Part shown: positions 27,682 to 35,893 of the stretch, one piece after another | How the letters are laid out: each line of letters begins with the position of its first letter | How positions within the stretch are numbered: the stretch's first letter is position 1 | Assembly: GCA_964588985.1 (NCBI GenBank) | Contig: CAZPQW010000024.1 | Coordinates: 1-49,081 of the forward strand | Direction: 5' to 3' | From: an uncultured Solirubrobacteraceae bacterium | Lineage (GTDB): Bacteria; Actinomycetota; Thermoleophilia; Solirubrobacterales; Solirubrobacteraceae | Length of the DNA: 49,081 nucleotides | Position numbers and translations under genes: made by a program | Notes under the pieces: generated by a model | Databases searched by the model: none | What the model saw: only the letters and a program-made list of their open reading frames with translations | Told to the model about the DNA's origin: nothing

Positions 27682-27959
27682 CCGACTCGCGCCAAATCTG
27701 CGCCAGTGCAAGCGCGGATCGTGCGGTTTCGGGCGGTTTCAAGCGGCAAACGGGGCGCAGGCACAACCCGCGCGCTCGGCGCTGAATCCCGCTCAACCAT
27801 GCGGAAAACCGTTCAAGCAAGCCAAAAATCTGCCGCGAACCAAAGACCCCCGGAATCTGGACGGGTGGATTCAAGACCTTTGCGCTTCCAGCGGCTTCCT
27901 GCGGTCTCCAGCGGTTTCAGGCGGTTGATCGAAAGGTCGCGCCACAGTGGGCGCCACAG
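27682..27959. repeat. attP/attI-like recombination site, copy A
   Basis: GCGCCA pair (27689, 27700), GCGG at about 10-bp spacing (27714-27743), core TTCAAGACC (27870), GCGG at 27891/27901/27911/27921, GCGCCACAG pair (27939, 27951); homologous to 35501-35893. Confidence 0.75.
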
Positions 27960-28430
27960 CCTCTGGACCGATGTCGTTTGAGCTGCGGGTCCACTCCACT
28001 GCAGATGACATCCTGCCAGTTGGGACGCGCTGTGAGTCGAGACCGCTGTCGGCTACTGCAACGCGAAGAAATCGGGCGGCGCCGCTATCGAGTCATGCAA
28101 CACAAAGATCTCATTGCGGATACTGCGCGCTGGACAGAGTTCGTAGACCTGATGGTCAAGGCGATGGGTTGCGATGCGTTTAAGACTTTGGTGTTTGCGC
28201 TGTCCGTGCTGACGCGCCGACCGCGAGACAGCTTCGCCTGTCGGACGGCGGCAGGGGCACCATCGCCCCGGCGGCTTCCTACGGCTTCAGGCGGATGTCG
28301 AAGCACACGCCACAGCCGCTCGGACCGATGGCGCTTGAACATGCATCCTTCCAACAGGCGCACGACGCGCGCCCGCAGCGCGGATGCGACCGCTAGCACC
28401 GCCTTCCACTGCTCCTGAGCGTCCTGTTTG

Positions 28431-29687
28431 TCACGGGCGTCTATTGGTCACGCTCGGACCGGCTTGATCGGGAGTCTCAGCCCGATCGGGAACTTCGGAT
28501 GACCCGTTCGTGTTCTCAGCGACATCGCCGGATCCTCCGAGCGGTACTTCGTATGCGGTATGCCTCCTCGCTAGTTCTGCCCGAACGGTCAGCTCACGCC
28601 GTCGAAAACGGCCCAGTTCGACTTTTGGTTCTCCCGTTCTCGGTCGTCCAGCCTTGGCCCAGGCGTACCAGAAGGCCCGTTCGAGCAGGGCACGGTCGGC
28701 GGCGAAGTCCGGAGGCTCGAACAGCACCAGCACGATCGACAGGGGCGGTGGCGCCTCCTCTGCCTCGGCCCGGCGCTTACACGCCAGCAAGTCGAGATGC
28801 TCAACAGCCACGTCCGAGAACACCCGCGACCACTGCGAGAGTGAGATCGATGCTGGCCCACTGCCGATGGCTGCAACGCCGATCGACTCACACTGATGCT
28901 CGCCGGCAAGCTCAAAAGCCGCTGCCAGGCACTCACGCATGGCCTCGACCTTCGCCTCGCCATTGCGGTTCATCGATGCAACGTGAACGATCCCCTGCAT
29001 CTGCTGGATGGCGCCCGCGGAGGTCCACCAGGCATGCCCCAACTTGAACGGCTTGCCCTCTTGCGCGAGTCGCTCCACACCCTCGCCCGCAGCCAGCTTG
29101 ATTGCGCGCGCCACCTGCGCCCACATCTGGCCGTCGACGTCGTCATCGCTGATGACGGTGTCGACATTGAGCTGGGATACATCGCCTTCGATTACCCATA
29201 CGCCGCCATGCTCGTTGGCCGTGTAGAGCTGATCGGCGGGGGCGTTGGCCTGTTCTTCCCCCTCTCTCCAGCGAAGCAGACTCGCGCGCTCGACGCCCGC
29301 GCGCCGCTCACTCGCCCACGGCTGAGGCAGACCGCAGAAGTGACATAGGTCGGCCAGCGGGGTGACTATGTCGCGATGGCAGCGAACACAAGATCGAGCG
29401 AGTCGTGCCCCACACTTCGGGCAGTTCGTGGTCTCAAAGCTGTACGCAACATGAGTTGCCGCCCTACCTGATAGGCGCGTGCGCGCTACCAGCTCACGGC
29501 GAGCCTGCTTGTGGTAGTCACACCCACGCGGACAAACTTGGATCGGCGTCCTATCACCTTGTAGGTCTTCGTTGCGACGGAACTCGAACATCTGCCAACG
29601 AACTCTTGGCAGCGCTCTCCACAGCACCCGAACTCGCCTGTAGAGCCTTCGGGTCCCGGCTCTCAGTCCTCTGATCCTGGACTTCAT
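28431..29687 (-). CDS. Zinc-ribbon + macrodomain protein
   Basis: ATG 1 nt after upstream stop; CPRGC, CPKC, CVRC, CHFC; VWVIEGDVSQLNVDTVIS...VARAIKLAAG...GHAWWTSAG...IVHVA...SIGVAAIGSG macro fold pattern. Confidence 0.85.
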   Translation of the reverse strand: MKSRIRGLRAGTRRLYRRVRVLWRALPRVRWQMFEFRRNEDLQGDRTPIQVCPRGCDYHKQARRELVARTRLSGRAATHVAYSFETTNCPKCGARLARSCVRCHRDIVTPLADLCHFCGLPQPWASERRAGVERASLLRWREGEEQANAPADQLYTANEHGGVWVIEGDVSQLNVDTVISDDDVDGQMWAQVARAIKLAAGEGVERLAQEGKPFKLGHAWWTSAGAIQQMQGIVHVASMNRNGEAKVEAMRECLAAAFELAGEHQCESIGVAAIGSGPASISLSQWSRVFSDVAVEHLDLLACKRRAEAEEAPPPLSIVLVLFEPPDFAADRALLERAFWYAWAKAGRPRTGEPKVELGRFRRRELTVRAELARRHTAYEVPLGGSGDVAENTNGSSEVPDRAETPDQAGPSVTNRRP

Positions 29688-29688
29688 C

Positions 29689-34694: not shown

Positions 34695-34698
34695 TGAG

Positions 34699-35403
34699 AT
34701 GGCCGACGCACTGGTGCCGATGCCGGCGGTAAGTCACGGGGCGGACGTCGAGCTGACCGCGCAGGAGACGCTCGGGTGGGGTGGGCCGGTCCAAAGCCGT
34801 CTCGTGCTCGGTCGCTCTGATGTGGTGCCGATGGTCGCAGCGGAGGCGGTCGAGGACCAGCCGCTCGCCGCCTATCTCAAGAGCATCGCGCAGGAGTTCT
34901 CGCTTGTGCGCCTAACGCTGCGCCTCACCCTGCAACCAGCTCTCGGGGAGAGCATCGAGGAAGCGCTGTTCTCGCTGTCACTAGCGGCGCCGCAGGCCGA
35001 CGCCGCGGACCAGCCTTTCGTTCGCGCGCTCGCGCCGGAACGACTCGAGTCCGGGCCTTGTCGTGTGGACCGGGGAATCAAGCTCGGCTTCAAGGCGGGC
35101 GTGCCCGGGCTACCTGTCGAGGTCGAGGCGGGCTGGTCCAACGCCACGGCTGCGGAGAAGCGCTCCTTCTACTTGGTCGCGTACGGGCTCGGCACGACGT
35201 TGGTCGAGTGGCGCTTCAAGCGCACCCCGACAGTCGAGCTTGACGGCAGCTACGAGGTGGGTGCAATCGTCCAGCTCAAGCGCCACGTCGCAGCTGAGGC
35301 CGGCCTCTCCATTGGCGGTGAGGTGCGGGCGCATCATCGACGGCGGCAGCTCGAGGGAGTTGTGGGAGAGGGCTTCTCGCCTGTGGCGCTCAGCCCTGGT
35401 TGA
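34699..35403 (+). CDS. Beta-rich hypothetical protein coupled to the CHAT protease
   Basis: Starts 4 nt after CHAT stop with GGAGGTGA RBS; 234 aa; no signal peptide. Confidence 0.8.
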   Translation: MADALVPMPAVSHGADVELTAQETLGWGGPVQSRLVLGRSDVVPMVAAEAVEDQPLAAYLKSIAQEFSLVRLTLRLTLQPALGESIEEALFSLSLAAPQADAADQPFVRALAPERLESGPCRVDRGIKLGFKAGVPGLPVEVEAGWSNATAAEKRSFYLVAYGLGTTLVEWRFKRTPTVELDGSYEVGAIVQLKRHVAAEAGLSIGGEVRAHHRRRQLEGVVGEGFSPVALSPG

Positions 35404-35500
35404 GACGCACGCATGACCGCGTCTCGCGATGAGTCAGGATGCCCAAGGTTCTGACGGCTGGGCTAGTCCCGCTCGATGCAGGACCCTCAACCAGCTTCGC

Positions 35501-35893
35501 CCGACTCGCGCCAAATCTGCGCCAGTTCAAGCGCGGATCGTGCGGTTTCAGGCGGTTAACAGCGGTTTCGCGGCGCCGCGCACCCGTGGCGACCGACCGG
35601 CGGAATCCCGCTCAACGGTGCGGAAAACGGCTCAGGAAAGCCAAGAATCCGCGCACCCCGGCGAGACGCGACTTTCCGGACGTCCGGATTTCAAGACCGT
35701 TGCGGCGTTCTGCGGCTTCTAGCGGTCTCCAGCGGTTTCAGGAGGTTTGGTTTGCCCGCTCGTGGCTGGCTCTGATAGTGGATATCACGGTCCAGTAGCG
35801 AGGTGCTACGCCACGGCTGAGAAGAGCCTGGCTTGGTCCGCTCATGGTTATCTCCGTGGGCTTCGCGCCACAACGTGCGCCACGTATTGGCGC
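35501..35893. repeat. attP/attI-like recombination site, copy B
   Basis: First 57 bp match copy A at 55 positions; GAATCCCGCTCAAC..TGCGGAAAAC at same offset; core TTCAAGACC (35690); GCGG at 35702/35712/35722/35732; GCGCCAC pair (35865, 35877). Confidence 0.75.

Follow-up and report, generated by a model that had tools for sequence, protein, structure and literature searches.

What are the two long non-coding repeats that stand on either side of a block of five open reading frames in an uncultured Solirubrobacteraceae bacterium, and by which process did they come to enclose it? Both lie on contig C24, within the 49,081-nt stretch of DNA that was analysed as a whole (hereafter the window). The initial annotation proposed attP-like junctions between cassettes that are moved in trans by an integrase encoded outside the window and form an integron-like array of conflict genes. 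We consider it probable that the repeats, named sites A and B, are internal attP-like junctions of tandem islands which integrate into tRNA-Ser anticodon loops.

Anatomy and conservation of the two sites

Sites A (27661-27956) and B (35476-35882) are homologous, co-oriented and non-coding, and all elements that had been described for them are present where they had been placed:

27661..27869, + strand: site A left arm (nhmmer with the left-arm profile, E = 1e-45)
27689-27705: site A GCGCCA pair, period 11
27714, 27723, 27733 and 27743 (span 27714-27746): site A left GCGG iterons
27784-27829: site A conserved central block with the dyad CCCGC..GCGG inside
27870..27878, + strand: site A core TTCAAGACC, reverse complement of the tRNA-Ser(UGA) anticodon loop and putative crossover region
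27879..27956, + strand: site A right arm (type R1), with one degenerate and four exact GCGG iterons at 27882-27924
27891, 27901, 27911 and 27921: site A right exact GCGG iterons, at exact 10-bp spacing
27939-27956: site A GCGCCAC pair, period 12
35476..35689, + strand: site B left arm (nhmmer E = 3e-61), carrying the outer box ACCCTCAACC
35508-35524: site B GCGCCA pair
35533-35565: site B left GCGG iterons, four in number
35603-35648: site B central block
35690..35698, + strand: site B core TTCAAGACC
35699..35882, + strand: site B right arm (type R1)
35702-35745: site B right iterons, four exact (35702-35735) and one degenerate
35865-35882: site B GCGCCAC pair, after a spacer of about 115 nt

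One correction concerns the left GCGG iterons, which are spaced by 9, 10 and 10 bp. The elements follow the same order in both sites, and the 9-bp cores are identical and offset by 7820 bp. Between the right iterons and the GCGCCAC pair site B is about 105 bases longer than site A. A strongly conserved outer box, AACCCTCAACCAAC, is present in site B and in most other copies of the site and absent from site A. Sites of this kind are 280-390 bp long and built of direct repeats.

Sites A and B align with 77% identity over 245 nt (E = 1e-41). The arrangement GCGCCA-N4-7-GCGCCA occurs four times in the window against 0.20 expected, a count reached in none of 100 shuffles, and runs of at least four GCGG at exact 10-bp spacing are found at only three places of the 3.4-Mb genome: A, B and one unrelated place. 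When 40 distinct full-length left arms of the genus are compared, column identity is 75-100% in the boxes, whereas two spacers of roughly 40 nt show no conservation, which backs the earlier observation that the motifs are kept as the DNA between them drifts. Over about 220 nt, the site B left arm shares 85-89% identity with the terminal left arms of three other genomes (G245, G263 and G008). The R1 type of right arm also occurs in G245, G238 and G101, in the first of these with the same iteron layout, spacer (about 120 nt) and GCGCCAC pair as in site B.

Pairs of CTCGCGCCA are present on both arms in all arm types. These pairs would be the arm-type sites of the integrase N-terminal domain, and the phased GCGG iterons may be the target of an accessory protein or a directionality factor, although the neighbourhoods of the integrases in five elements showed no recognisable gene for the latter. 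In attP sites of the lambda, L5 and pSAM2 type, paired arm-type repeats flank a short core, helically phased accessory sites lie on an arm and the whole measures 250-400 bp. At the sequence level the sites described here share the putative arm pairs, the short core, the phased repeats and the size. We know of no lambda, L5 or pSAM2 site in which the iteron block is repeated on the second arm, as it is in the R1 arms of A and B.

The tRNA-Ser target and the linked integrase

The shared core corresponds to the tRNA-Ser anticodon loop, TTTCRAGACC being its reverse complement. Breakpoints were counted in 47 distinct left-arm-plus-core copies from the loci fetched across the genus. In all of them the left-arm homology stops right after TTTCRAGACC, and the switch to other DNA is always there. 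Past the core, 33 of the 47 copies continue into the 5' half of a tRNA-Ser (UGA or CGA type) with a promoter box, seven into a hairpin and a GCGCCAC arm, three (A, B and one in G245) into an iteron arm, three into an apparent 5' half of another tRNA, and one into something else. The sites are thus gene-content breakpoints, as had been suspected, and the break falls exactly at the core. Since the common core is about 10-11 bp and ARAGORN finds no tRNA at the junctions, the tRNA gene is not rebuilt by integration. The empty target could be seen in three of the five left-arm-negative genomes checked, where a deaminase gene is followed directly by an intact tRNA-Ser(CGA).

A third copy of the left arm, a terminal one, is located on contig C15 of the same genome. 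The order there is: tadA-like deaminase, tRNA-Ser(CGA) nucleotides 1-40, core, left arm, 110 bp, complete tRNA-Ser(CGA) on the other strand, tyrosine integrase (Phage_integrase E = 6e-22), the last about 0.4 kb from the left arm. The split tRNA equals the intact tRNA-Ser(CGA) of G015 and G014 over its first 40 nt and then diverges into the arm. Among the 13 PF00589 matches of the genome none is on C24, and a tblastn search for an integrase in the window gave nothing better than E = 0.15, that is, no integrase remnant. The window thus has no integrase, and a fitting one is encoded elsewhere in the genome, on C15 beside the third left arm, in line with the initial annotation. With the C15 arm just 74-78% identical to the left arms of A and B, we can only infer that its integrase recognises them in trans.

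An orthologue of the C15 integrase in G011 is 69% identical and has the same arrangement. Cross-tabulation of left-arm and integrase matches over 300 genomes has shown an integrase match of at least 53% identity in 25 of them. The left arm is present in 23 of these 25, and in all 23 it shares a contig with the integrase, at a distance of 0.6-88 kb. No such integrase match is found in 40 of the 63 left-arm-positive genomes, as would be expected both of fossil junctions and of junctions mobilised in trans. Identity of the integrase to those of phages is low, at about 25% (the best of 1487 records has 26% over 82% of the query).

The left arm was found in 63 of 300 other genomes of the genus, with one or two copies per genome (a tally of 64/301 takes in one unpublished genome, G065). 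Paired co-oriented sites on one contig recur: two scored left-arm matches lie 1.8-40 kb apart in 13 other genomes, co-oriented in 13 of 13 pairs, and the left-arm profile finds two arms in each of the 11 arrays fetched from these 13. An island-borne tRNA-Ser is present in this genome (G000, on C15) and in G009, G011, G020, G030, G107 and G313, and tDNA fragments bound island blocks in relatives and on C15. The unit of G020 consists of a 3' tRNA fragment, core, right arm, tRNA-Ser(CGA), 7.6 kb of cargo, left arm, core and 5' half; it is complete but integrase-less, with only a 92-residue integrase fragment inside. The left arm of site A is 81% identical to the terminal junction of G036, and positions 22082-23469 of the window match, with 95% identity over 1388 bp, a G036 segment 0.7 kb left of the terminal junction there. 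The same arm consequently runs into the chromosome in G036 and into the cassette in this genome.

The 7820-bp unit and its surroundings

The unit between the cores has the site A right arm at one end and the site B left arm at the other. It and its neighbours comprise:

13900..27660: unit E1, foreign DNA left of site A, left boundary provisional (GC 62.9%; whole genome 68.3%, 4.1-13.9 kb 68.8%)
27978..28418, + strand: putative gene, 146 aa, no Pfam, NCBIfam or PADLOC match
28431..30101, - strand: macro-domain protein with a zinc ribbon (Pfam Macro E = 2.6e-9, DZR E = 5.6e-4)
29689..31479, - strand: 596-aa protein with weak TPR signals (Pfam TPR_2 E = 0.003)
31575..34694, + strand: TPR-CHAT protein, 1039 aa, caspase-like protease (Pfam CHAT E = 7.4e-37, residues 779-1037)
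34699..35403, + strand: 234-aa protein directly behind the CHAT gene, no family found (Pfam, PADLOC, NCBIfam)
35883..49081: unit E3, foreign DNA right of site B that runs off the contig (GC 61.6%)

From its listed start the macro gene would share 413 nt with the gene that follows, and translation therefore probably begins further inside. The macro-domain protein scores far below the cut-off of the NCBIfam ADP-ribose-binding model. Residues 1-770 of the TPR-CHAT protein resemble Atlas TPR clusters (scores 0.90-0.93), which we treat as a lead only. G145 has a distant DNA relative of the 596-aa gene and the macro gene (65-69% identity).

Of the cargo initially described as proteases and a macrodomain, Pfam confirms the CHAT protease and the macro-domain protein; the M48/Lit-like protein is encoded to the left of site A and does not belong to the unit. 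Conflict genes are a plausible description of this cargo, but no PADLOC defence model matches any of the five cassette ORFs, which leaves that label unproven. None of the 300 genus genomes has a near copy of the cassette cargo, so the unit has never been seen moving as a unit. Integrase, relaxase and coupling-protein domains are absent from the five ORFs, and no tRNA lies in the 7.8-kb unit, tRNA-Arg being the sole tRNA on C24. With both arms but neither integrase nor tRNA the unit resembles a CIME.

Pfam and PADLOC matches in E1 include an Exo_endo_phos-domain ORF (endonuclease/exonuclease/phosphatase family), an AAA_16 ATPase, a NERD helicase, a DUF4407 protein, a split Mutator transposase and the M48/Lit-like protein already mentioned. 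Those in E3 include one ROK-like protein, Golvesin_C proteins, a PKD/PD40 protein, a PD-T4-3 homologue and a haem-oxygenase-like protein; E3 contains no integrase, tRNA or terminal junction up to the contig end.

Probable accretion at tRNA-Ser and the alternatives

The tRNA-Ser core and breakpoints, the C15 copy, the linked integrase and the empty targets together point to A and B as internal left-arm/core/right-arm junctions. The attP-like reading of the initial annotation was largely right in that the sites appear as tyrosine-integrase attachment junctions of accreted islands anchored at tRNA-Ser; its integron part does not hold. In the proposed mechanism a tyrosine integrase would recombine the island core of about 10 bp (TTTCRAGACC) with the same bases of the tRNA gene. 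So short a core does not restore the tRNA, and for this reason complete islands carry their own tRNA-Ser beside the integrase. Where a new island recombines with an existing island-chromosome junction in place of a free tRNA gene, a left-arm/core/right-arm seam would be left. Excision or re-insertion of the 7.8-kb unit might be carried out in trans by the integrase of C15; no excision joint at the core was found in the assembled contigs of public runs.

Several observations count against accretion. The cores of A and B are of the UGA type (CAAG) and the C15 junction is of the CGA type (CGAG). C24 has neither a tRNA-Ser fragment nor a terminal junction and ends within foreign DNA; the 3' half of the split tRNA-Ser(CGA) is absent from the whole assembly (95.9% complete), and the outer ends of the array were not found. 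Without these fragments the outer ends and the link to C15 are unproven.

A real possibility, though one that we would not favour, is that the same accretion was followed by decay, with integrase and tRNA lost and IS inserted, so that the sites are now unused and their conservation reflects recent common descent. Two transposase genes, one of them split, in the foreign DNA left of A would fit such decay, as would the missing left end of the array, the 40 of 63 left-arm-positive genomes with no close integrase and the lack in site A of the outer AACCCTCAACC box that at least 90% of copies keep; tandem partners "are generally decayed elements" according to the review PMC5704250. Yet boxes, phasing and core are intact in A and B where the spacers cannot be aligned, a pattern that neutral decay would not give, and the same genome has an integrase of the cognate type.

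The layout of two blocks of four to five direct repeats, spaced by 10 bp on either side of a central region, is similar to that of parC-type centromeres and iteron origins. On this reading the phased GCGG and GCGCCA repeats would be bound by an initiator of replication, a centromere protein of the ParR kind or a transcription factor, and would have no role in recombination. This is very improbable, given that in 33 of 47 copies the left arm meets a tRNA-Ser half at one fixed base, that the arm is linked to a tyrosine integrase in 23 of 25 genomes and that none of the 40 window ORFs scanned has a Rep, ParM, ParA or ParR domain. No more credible is a small transcribed or transposing repeat (structured ncRNA, REP element or MITE), which three copies in the genome, the presence of the repeat in 63 of 300 other genus genomes and two small conserved hairpins in the central block (seen by eye in the alignment) might suggest: in the window Rfam yields nothing above a gathering score but one tRNA, folding the consensus of 40 copies pairs few of its 273 columns (about -12 kcal/mol on either strand), terminal inverted repeats are absent, and the one or two copies per genome are always at tRNA-Ser-related breakpoints. 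A true integron, with single-strand attC-like sites recombined at attI by an IntI-type integrase, has next to no likelihood, the picture of cassettes between repeated sites being a superficial one. The integron is refuted on three defining features, namely integrase type, attC sites and one-ORF cassettes. On the NCBIfam integron-integrase model, where 265 bits is the cut-off, the linked integrase reaches 32, and the window contains no integrase; the sites are 280-390 bp of direct repeats with a weak consensus fold, not imperfect palindromes of 55-140 bp; and the unit has five ORFs on both strands, not a single one. The target, moreover, is a tRNA anticodon loop. "Integron-like" is therefore a loose analogy only.

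The closest known process to the preferred reading, accretion at tRNA-Ser, is that in which islands targeting tRNA genes accrete in tandem; internal att sites of chimeric make-up and CIME-type units with no integrase are its products. The primary papers on tandem accretion and CIMEs are reportedly those of Pavlovic (2004) and Bellanger (2011). Examples given in the review PMC5704250 are the ICESt1/ICESt3-related elements of Streptococcus thermophilus and IME_Sag2603_tRNAlys. As described there, units lie side by side at one target, internal junctions combine the arms of two elements, some units have both att sites but lack integration and transfer genes, and mobility is expected to be driven by an integrase from a neighbouring or resident element, all of which has its counterpart here. 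Our case differs in the anticodon-loop target, the displaced 5' tRNA half, the tRNA that is not rebuilt and an array with no tied conjugation module. CIMEs derive from ICE or IME by decay and excise with a neighbour; the 7.8-kb unit is CIME-like in its att sites and gene content.

tRNA-dependent lysogeny is described for the actinobacteriophages Fionnbharth, LeBron and Gaia (Guerrero-Bustamante and Hatfull, 2024, PMC10865867). That work reports a tyrosine integrase, an attB inside a tRNA gene, an Actinomycetota host, a common core of about 8-17 bp and a tRNA that is not reconstructed, as in our elements; the cognate tRNA is likewise carried by the island family, though not by the 7.8-kb unit itself. 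Unlike these phages, which use tRNA-Lys, -Ile or -Leu in that account, the islands use tRNA-Ser, form arrays and include units with no integrase or tRNA. Capsid, terminase and tail domains are absent from the Pfam matches in the element parts examined.

Islander (Hudson, Lau and Williams, 2015, PMC4383910) counts 2083 islands in the anticodon-loop-centred attP class and 125 tandems of two or more; restoration of the gene by the island is the rule there, and a 5' fragment is left in just 159 cases out of 3919. An anticodon-loop attP, a tDNA fragment at the island end and tandem arrays are shared with our islands. Because tandem calls, by the procedure outlined there, need an integrase and a fragment per unit, units of the A-B type, which have neither, would be missed.

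We also speculate, at the level of an unlikely scenario, that at the tRNA-Ser genes of this genus one integrase-and-tRNA island per array serves as the driver of changing arm-only multi-gene units that are captured, reordered and lost in trans, a large-cassette counterpart of the integron. Under this unlikely scenario, the arm-only units would include a separate class whose right arms are of the iteron type (A, B, G245, G238 and G101), and the system might combine a lambda-type attP and a tRNA-dependent integration scheme with defence-type cargo.

Overall, this is probably a known stacking mechanism in a little-studied group. For abundant soil actinobacteria the stacking of foreign DNA can now be described precisely, in terms of a tRNA-Ser anticodon-loop core some 10 bp long, a 225-bp arm whose named boxes are conserved, an integrase linked to that arm and a replacement tRNA that the island brings along. 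Searches with the left-arm profile detect islands, including integrase-less ones, that would be overlooked by finders relying on a tDNA fragment plus an integrase. tRNA-dependent integration, so far shown for actinobacteriophages, appears here in islands with no phage gene in the parts examined. If the integrase works on these sites, the pair may become an integration tool for such bacteria. The TPR-CHAT protease and the macro-domain protein between the seams are candidate conflict genes, which can now be assigned to a putative mobile unit.

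Anatomy of the two junction sites

Sites A (27661-27956) and B (35476-35882) are homologous non-coding junctions in the same orientation, each composed of a left arm, a core and a right arm. Both sites and the motif layout reported in the initial annotation were located where it had placed them, and the order of elements is the same in A and B.

Elements of sites A and B (window coordinates)
27689-27705: site A, GCGCCA pair, period 11
27714, 27723, 27733, 27743 (starts): site A, left GCGG iterons
27784-27829: site A, conserved block with dyad CCCGC..GCGG
27870-27878: site A, core TTCAAGACC
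27891, 27901, 27911, 27921: site A, right GCGG iterons
27939-27956: site A, GCGCCAC pair, period 12
35508-35524: site B, GCGCCA pair
35533-35565: site B, left GCGG iterons
35603-35648: site B, conserved block with dyad
35690-35698: site B, core
35702-35735: site B, right GCGG iterons
35865-35882: site B, GCGCCAC pair

The cores lie 7820 bp apart, and site B has about 105 additional bases, compared with A, ahead of its final GCGCCAC pair. The likeness of A and B (BLAST E = 1e-41) is far above chance. The paired-box pattern occurs four times in the window against 0.20 expected. Apart from those of A and B, the 3.4-Mb genome has just one run of at least four GCGG at exact 10-bp spacing, at an unrelated position. 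No gene-like frame runs over either site. A non-coding RNA was considered and rejected, as neither site has an Rfam match and the consensus fold is weak. An outer left-arm box, AACCCTCAACCAAC, is located about 20 nt outside the GCGCCA pair (35483-35494 in site B); it is kept in at least 90% of 40 copies and is missing from site A.

The tRNA-Ser target and breakpoints at the core

The assembly comprises 48 contigs, one of which (C24) is the whole window. A BLAST search of the same genome found a partial third copy of the site on contig C15. In the A/B orientation, C15 carries a tyrosine integrase (Phage_integrase E = 6e-22) and, next to it, a complete tRNA-Ser(CGA), which 110 bp separate from the left arm with the core TTTTCGAGACC. 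The core is followed by the reverse complement of tRNA-Ser(CGA) nucleotides 1-40 with a promoter box, and then by a tadA-like deaminase gene. An intact tRNA-Ser(CGA) is located directly after the deaminase in three out of five arm-negative relatives. C15 is identical to this intact gene over 40 nt; the identity ends with the anticodon loop, where the arm takes over. The core therefore corresponds to the anticodon loop. C15 carries the junction of an inserted element with a split tRNA gene, and the complete tRNA-Ser beside the integrase is the replacement tRNA of this element. The initial annotation had postulated an integrase outside the window, and a fitting one is present on C15, next to the third left-arm copy.

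Further copies, which it had proposed to count, exist in other genomes as well as on C15. Of 36 genomes of the genus, 11 carry the left arm, against none of 24 genomes sampled from five other families in the same order; a second draw detected it in 63 out of 300 other genomes of the genus, including one unpublished genome (G065). The fetched loci, a non-random sample of best matches and arrays, contain 47 distinct left-arm copies extending to the core. Beyond it lies the 5' half of a tRNA-Ser of UGA or CGA type in 33 of the 47 copies, a hairpin (TTTTGGCTC..GAGCCAAAA) with a sometimes doubled CTCGCGCCAC pair in seven, an iteron arm in three (A, B and one in genome G245), an apparent 5' half of a tRNA with CCA anticodon, recognised by eye, in three, and other sequence in one. 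These classes are mutually unrelated, and the switch point is always right behind TTTCRAGACC.

The G245 arm is built like that of site B, with about 120 nt between the iterons and the GCGCCAC pair, and two more iteron arms adjoin truncated left arms in G238 and G101. We also asked whether the iteron right arm could have arisen from a tRNA 5' half by degeneration and discarded this reading, the match being poor by eye. The left-arm variants at loci L067, L069 and L078 (G243, G162 and G148) have the core TTTTGGAGACC followed by an apparent tRNA (Trp, CCA anticodon) 5' half, suggesting a possible target switch inside one arm family.

Closely related arms have different neighbours. The left arm of A shares 81% identity, also in the central spacer, with an arm of G036 which ends in the tRNA-Ser(CGA) 5' half and chromosome; 0.7 kb to the left of that arm, a segment of 1388 bp matches window 22082-23469 at 95% identity. 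The left arm of B is 85-89% identical to terminal arms of G245, G263 and G008. Gene content therefore changes at the core, as the cargo comparison proposed in the initial annotation had envisaged.

Integrase linkage and arrays in relatives

Co-occurrence of integrase and arm was assessed by cross-tabulating two separate scans of 300 genomes. A match to the C15 integrase of at least 53% identity is present in 25 of the 300; 23 of these are also arm-positive, and in all 23 the arm is on the integrase contig, at a distance of 0.6 to 88 kb. Forty out of 63 arm-positive genomes have no integrase match at this threshold, and tblastn found the integrase to be complete, interrupted or absent depending on the fetched element. 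The G011 orthologue is 69% identical, with the order of integrase, tRNA-Ser and arm conserved. This linkage argues that the tyrosine integrase belongs with the left-arm family. Identity of the C15 protein to phage integrases is only about 25%. The surroundings of the integrases in five elements were screened for a directionality factor; fourteen ORFs (64-323 aa), picked from nineteen candidates, were scanned, and none has an HTH_17/excisionase match.

Arrays of such sites are common in the genus. In a scan that scored only two candidates per genome, 13 other genomes have two left-arm matches on one contig, 1.8-40 kb apart and co-oriented in every pair, and each of the eleven arrays fetched out of these thirteen has two arms by profile. 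Contig C18 of G020 consists of a 3' fragment, core, right arm, integrase and tRNA-Ser(UGA), continued by 8 kb of cargo, a left arm, a core and the right arm of the next unit. Another G020 contig has a right arm, tRNA-Ser(CGA), 7.6 kb of cargo and a left arm, with the integrase reduced to a 92-residue fragment. At locus L085 (G313:C3:167000-186999) an island-borne tRNA-Ser(CGA) is broken in two. A left arm adjoins the half on the integrase side, and this order is inverted with respect to the 3' half, which lies 8 kb off next to an inverted right arm. This arrangement is best read as a probable insertion into the island-borne tRNA-Ser followed by site-specific inversion.

Foreign DNA, cargo and a model of accretion

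Base composition (GC)
Whole genome: 68.3%
4.1-13.9 kb: 68.8%
13.9-27.66 kb: 62.9%
Unit between the cores: 65.2%
35.7-49.1 kb: 61.6%

The GC shift marks foreign DNA that begins at about 13.9 kb and continues to the end of the contig; A and B are two seams within it. This foreign DNA contains no integrase, tRNA-Ser or tRNA fragment.

Open reading frames of the unit
146-aa frame, uncertain
macro-domain and zinc-ribbon protein
weakly TPR-like protein
TPR-CHAT protease
234-aa protein, no family assigned

The five ORFs have no PADLOC model match, and no copy of the unit was found in 300 genus genomes above 65-69% DNA identity, this for parts only. As regards the cargo of proteases and a macrodomain suggested initially, the TPR-CHAT protease and the macro-domain are inside the unit and the M48/Lit-like protein is just outside, left of A. 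The foreign DNA flanking the seams also encodes a PD-T4-3 homologue (45095-45886, PADLOC E = 5e-38) and a NERD-helicase similar to the helicase of a DRT-type system (19517-21283, E = 3e-21). The frame of a Mutator-family transposase (24272-25585) is interrupted, leaving 24755-25585 and 24272-24727, so the gene is probably broken. An rve-type transposase (12818-13879) is located exactly at the base-composition drop, and 7723-11223 codes for a giant repeat protein that combines RCC1, Ig-like and TIG domains; its gene contains tandem DNA repeats, 153 and 276 bp in length.

Positions 1-4100 hold a TrwC-type relaxase, cut at the contig start and continuing into contig C46, and behind it an excisionase-family HTH gene (2680-3102, minus strand) and tRNA-Arg(ACG) at 4023-4099. 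This region resembles one end of a different element, conjugative or mobilisable, at tRNA-Arg. The HTH gene, the only one of its family in the window, was rejected as the directionality factor of the A/B islands, since it adjoins the relaxase and tRNA-Arg and is part of another element.

The left end of the array was sought in the window, where no right-arm profile match, tRNA-Ser 3' fragment or further right-kind GCGCCA pair was found. A synteny search with 10400-12800 found no collinear backbone; separate parts of the query matched piece by piece, over about 700 bp at most, and the commonest match is a 600-bp stretch (query 1548-2126). This conserved gene segment (window 11947-12525) is present in about one third of genus genomes and lies within 6-23 kb of a left arm in G032, G009 and G306. 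The right ends of C24 (49081, CCCCCC) and C15 (86127, GGG) are both assembly dead ends. Neither end overlaps another contig (24 ends in the assembly are unpaired), and tblastx of the end regions against all fetched loci gave no match. A homopolymer gap linking the foreign DNA of the window to the C15 integrase junction is possible, which is only a hint.

Assembled contigs of four public runs (out of 22 found) were aligned to 26500-37000. They cover A and B as in the window, one 34-kb contig spanning the entire stretch. No A-B joint at the core occurs in them; as contigs drop rare forms, this is uninformative on excision. The four joints listed are located elsewhere than the core, with sides of just 20-25 nt.

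Our model starts from what the sequences show: how the sites are built, the match of the core to tRNA, the position of the breakpoints, the link between integrase and arm, and an empty target in relatives. Strand exchange by the integrase would take place in the anticodon loop of 7 nt and the bases flanking it. In all arm types, the CTCGCGCCA pairs are the sole repeated boxes shared by both arms and are therefore predicted to be the arm-type sites of the integrase. The phased GCGG iterons occur on every left arm; among right arms, only those of the R1 type (as in A and B) have them. They may bind an accessory or directionality protein. A seam like A or B would form when the partner of an incoming circle is a junction already present between island and chromosome, not a free tRNA gene. 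As the 7.8-kb unit retains an intact core and two intact arms, an integrase acting in trans could excise or move it, most plausibly the C15 integrase. We consider this movement in trans the weakest step of the model; the A and B arms are 74-78% identical to the C15 arm, the core types are one base apart, and the public contigs gave no joint.

The integron-like array proposed initially holds only as a loose analogy; none of the three defining integron features tested was found. Tandem accretion, chimeric internal att sites and integrase-less cis-mobilizable elements (CIMEs) are described for streptococcal elements, and accretion with CIMEs, as presented there, matches the process proposed for the A/B array (PMC5704250). 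In the account of tRNA-dependent lysogeny of actinobacteriophages, a short core is combined with an element-borne cognate tRNA, and both match the islands considered here (PMC10865867). According to the Islander survey, anticodon-centred sites are common, and few islands (159 of 3919) displace a 5' fragment; its tandem calls, as described, require an integrase in each unit (PMC4383910). A full-text search of one literature library found no paper there on Solirubrobacter genomic islands with integrase and tRNA.

Overall, the finding is real and the attP-like reading of A and B is right in substance. The A/B block is best filed as tRNA-Ser-targeting islands which do not rebuild the tRNA, are stacked by accretion and include integrase-less units.
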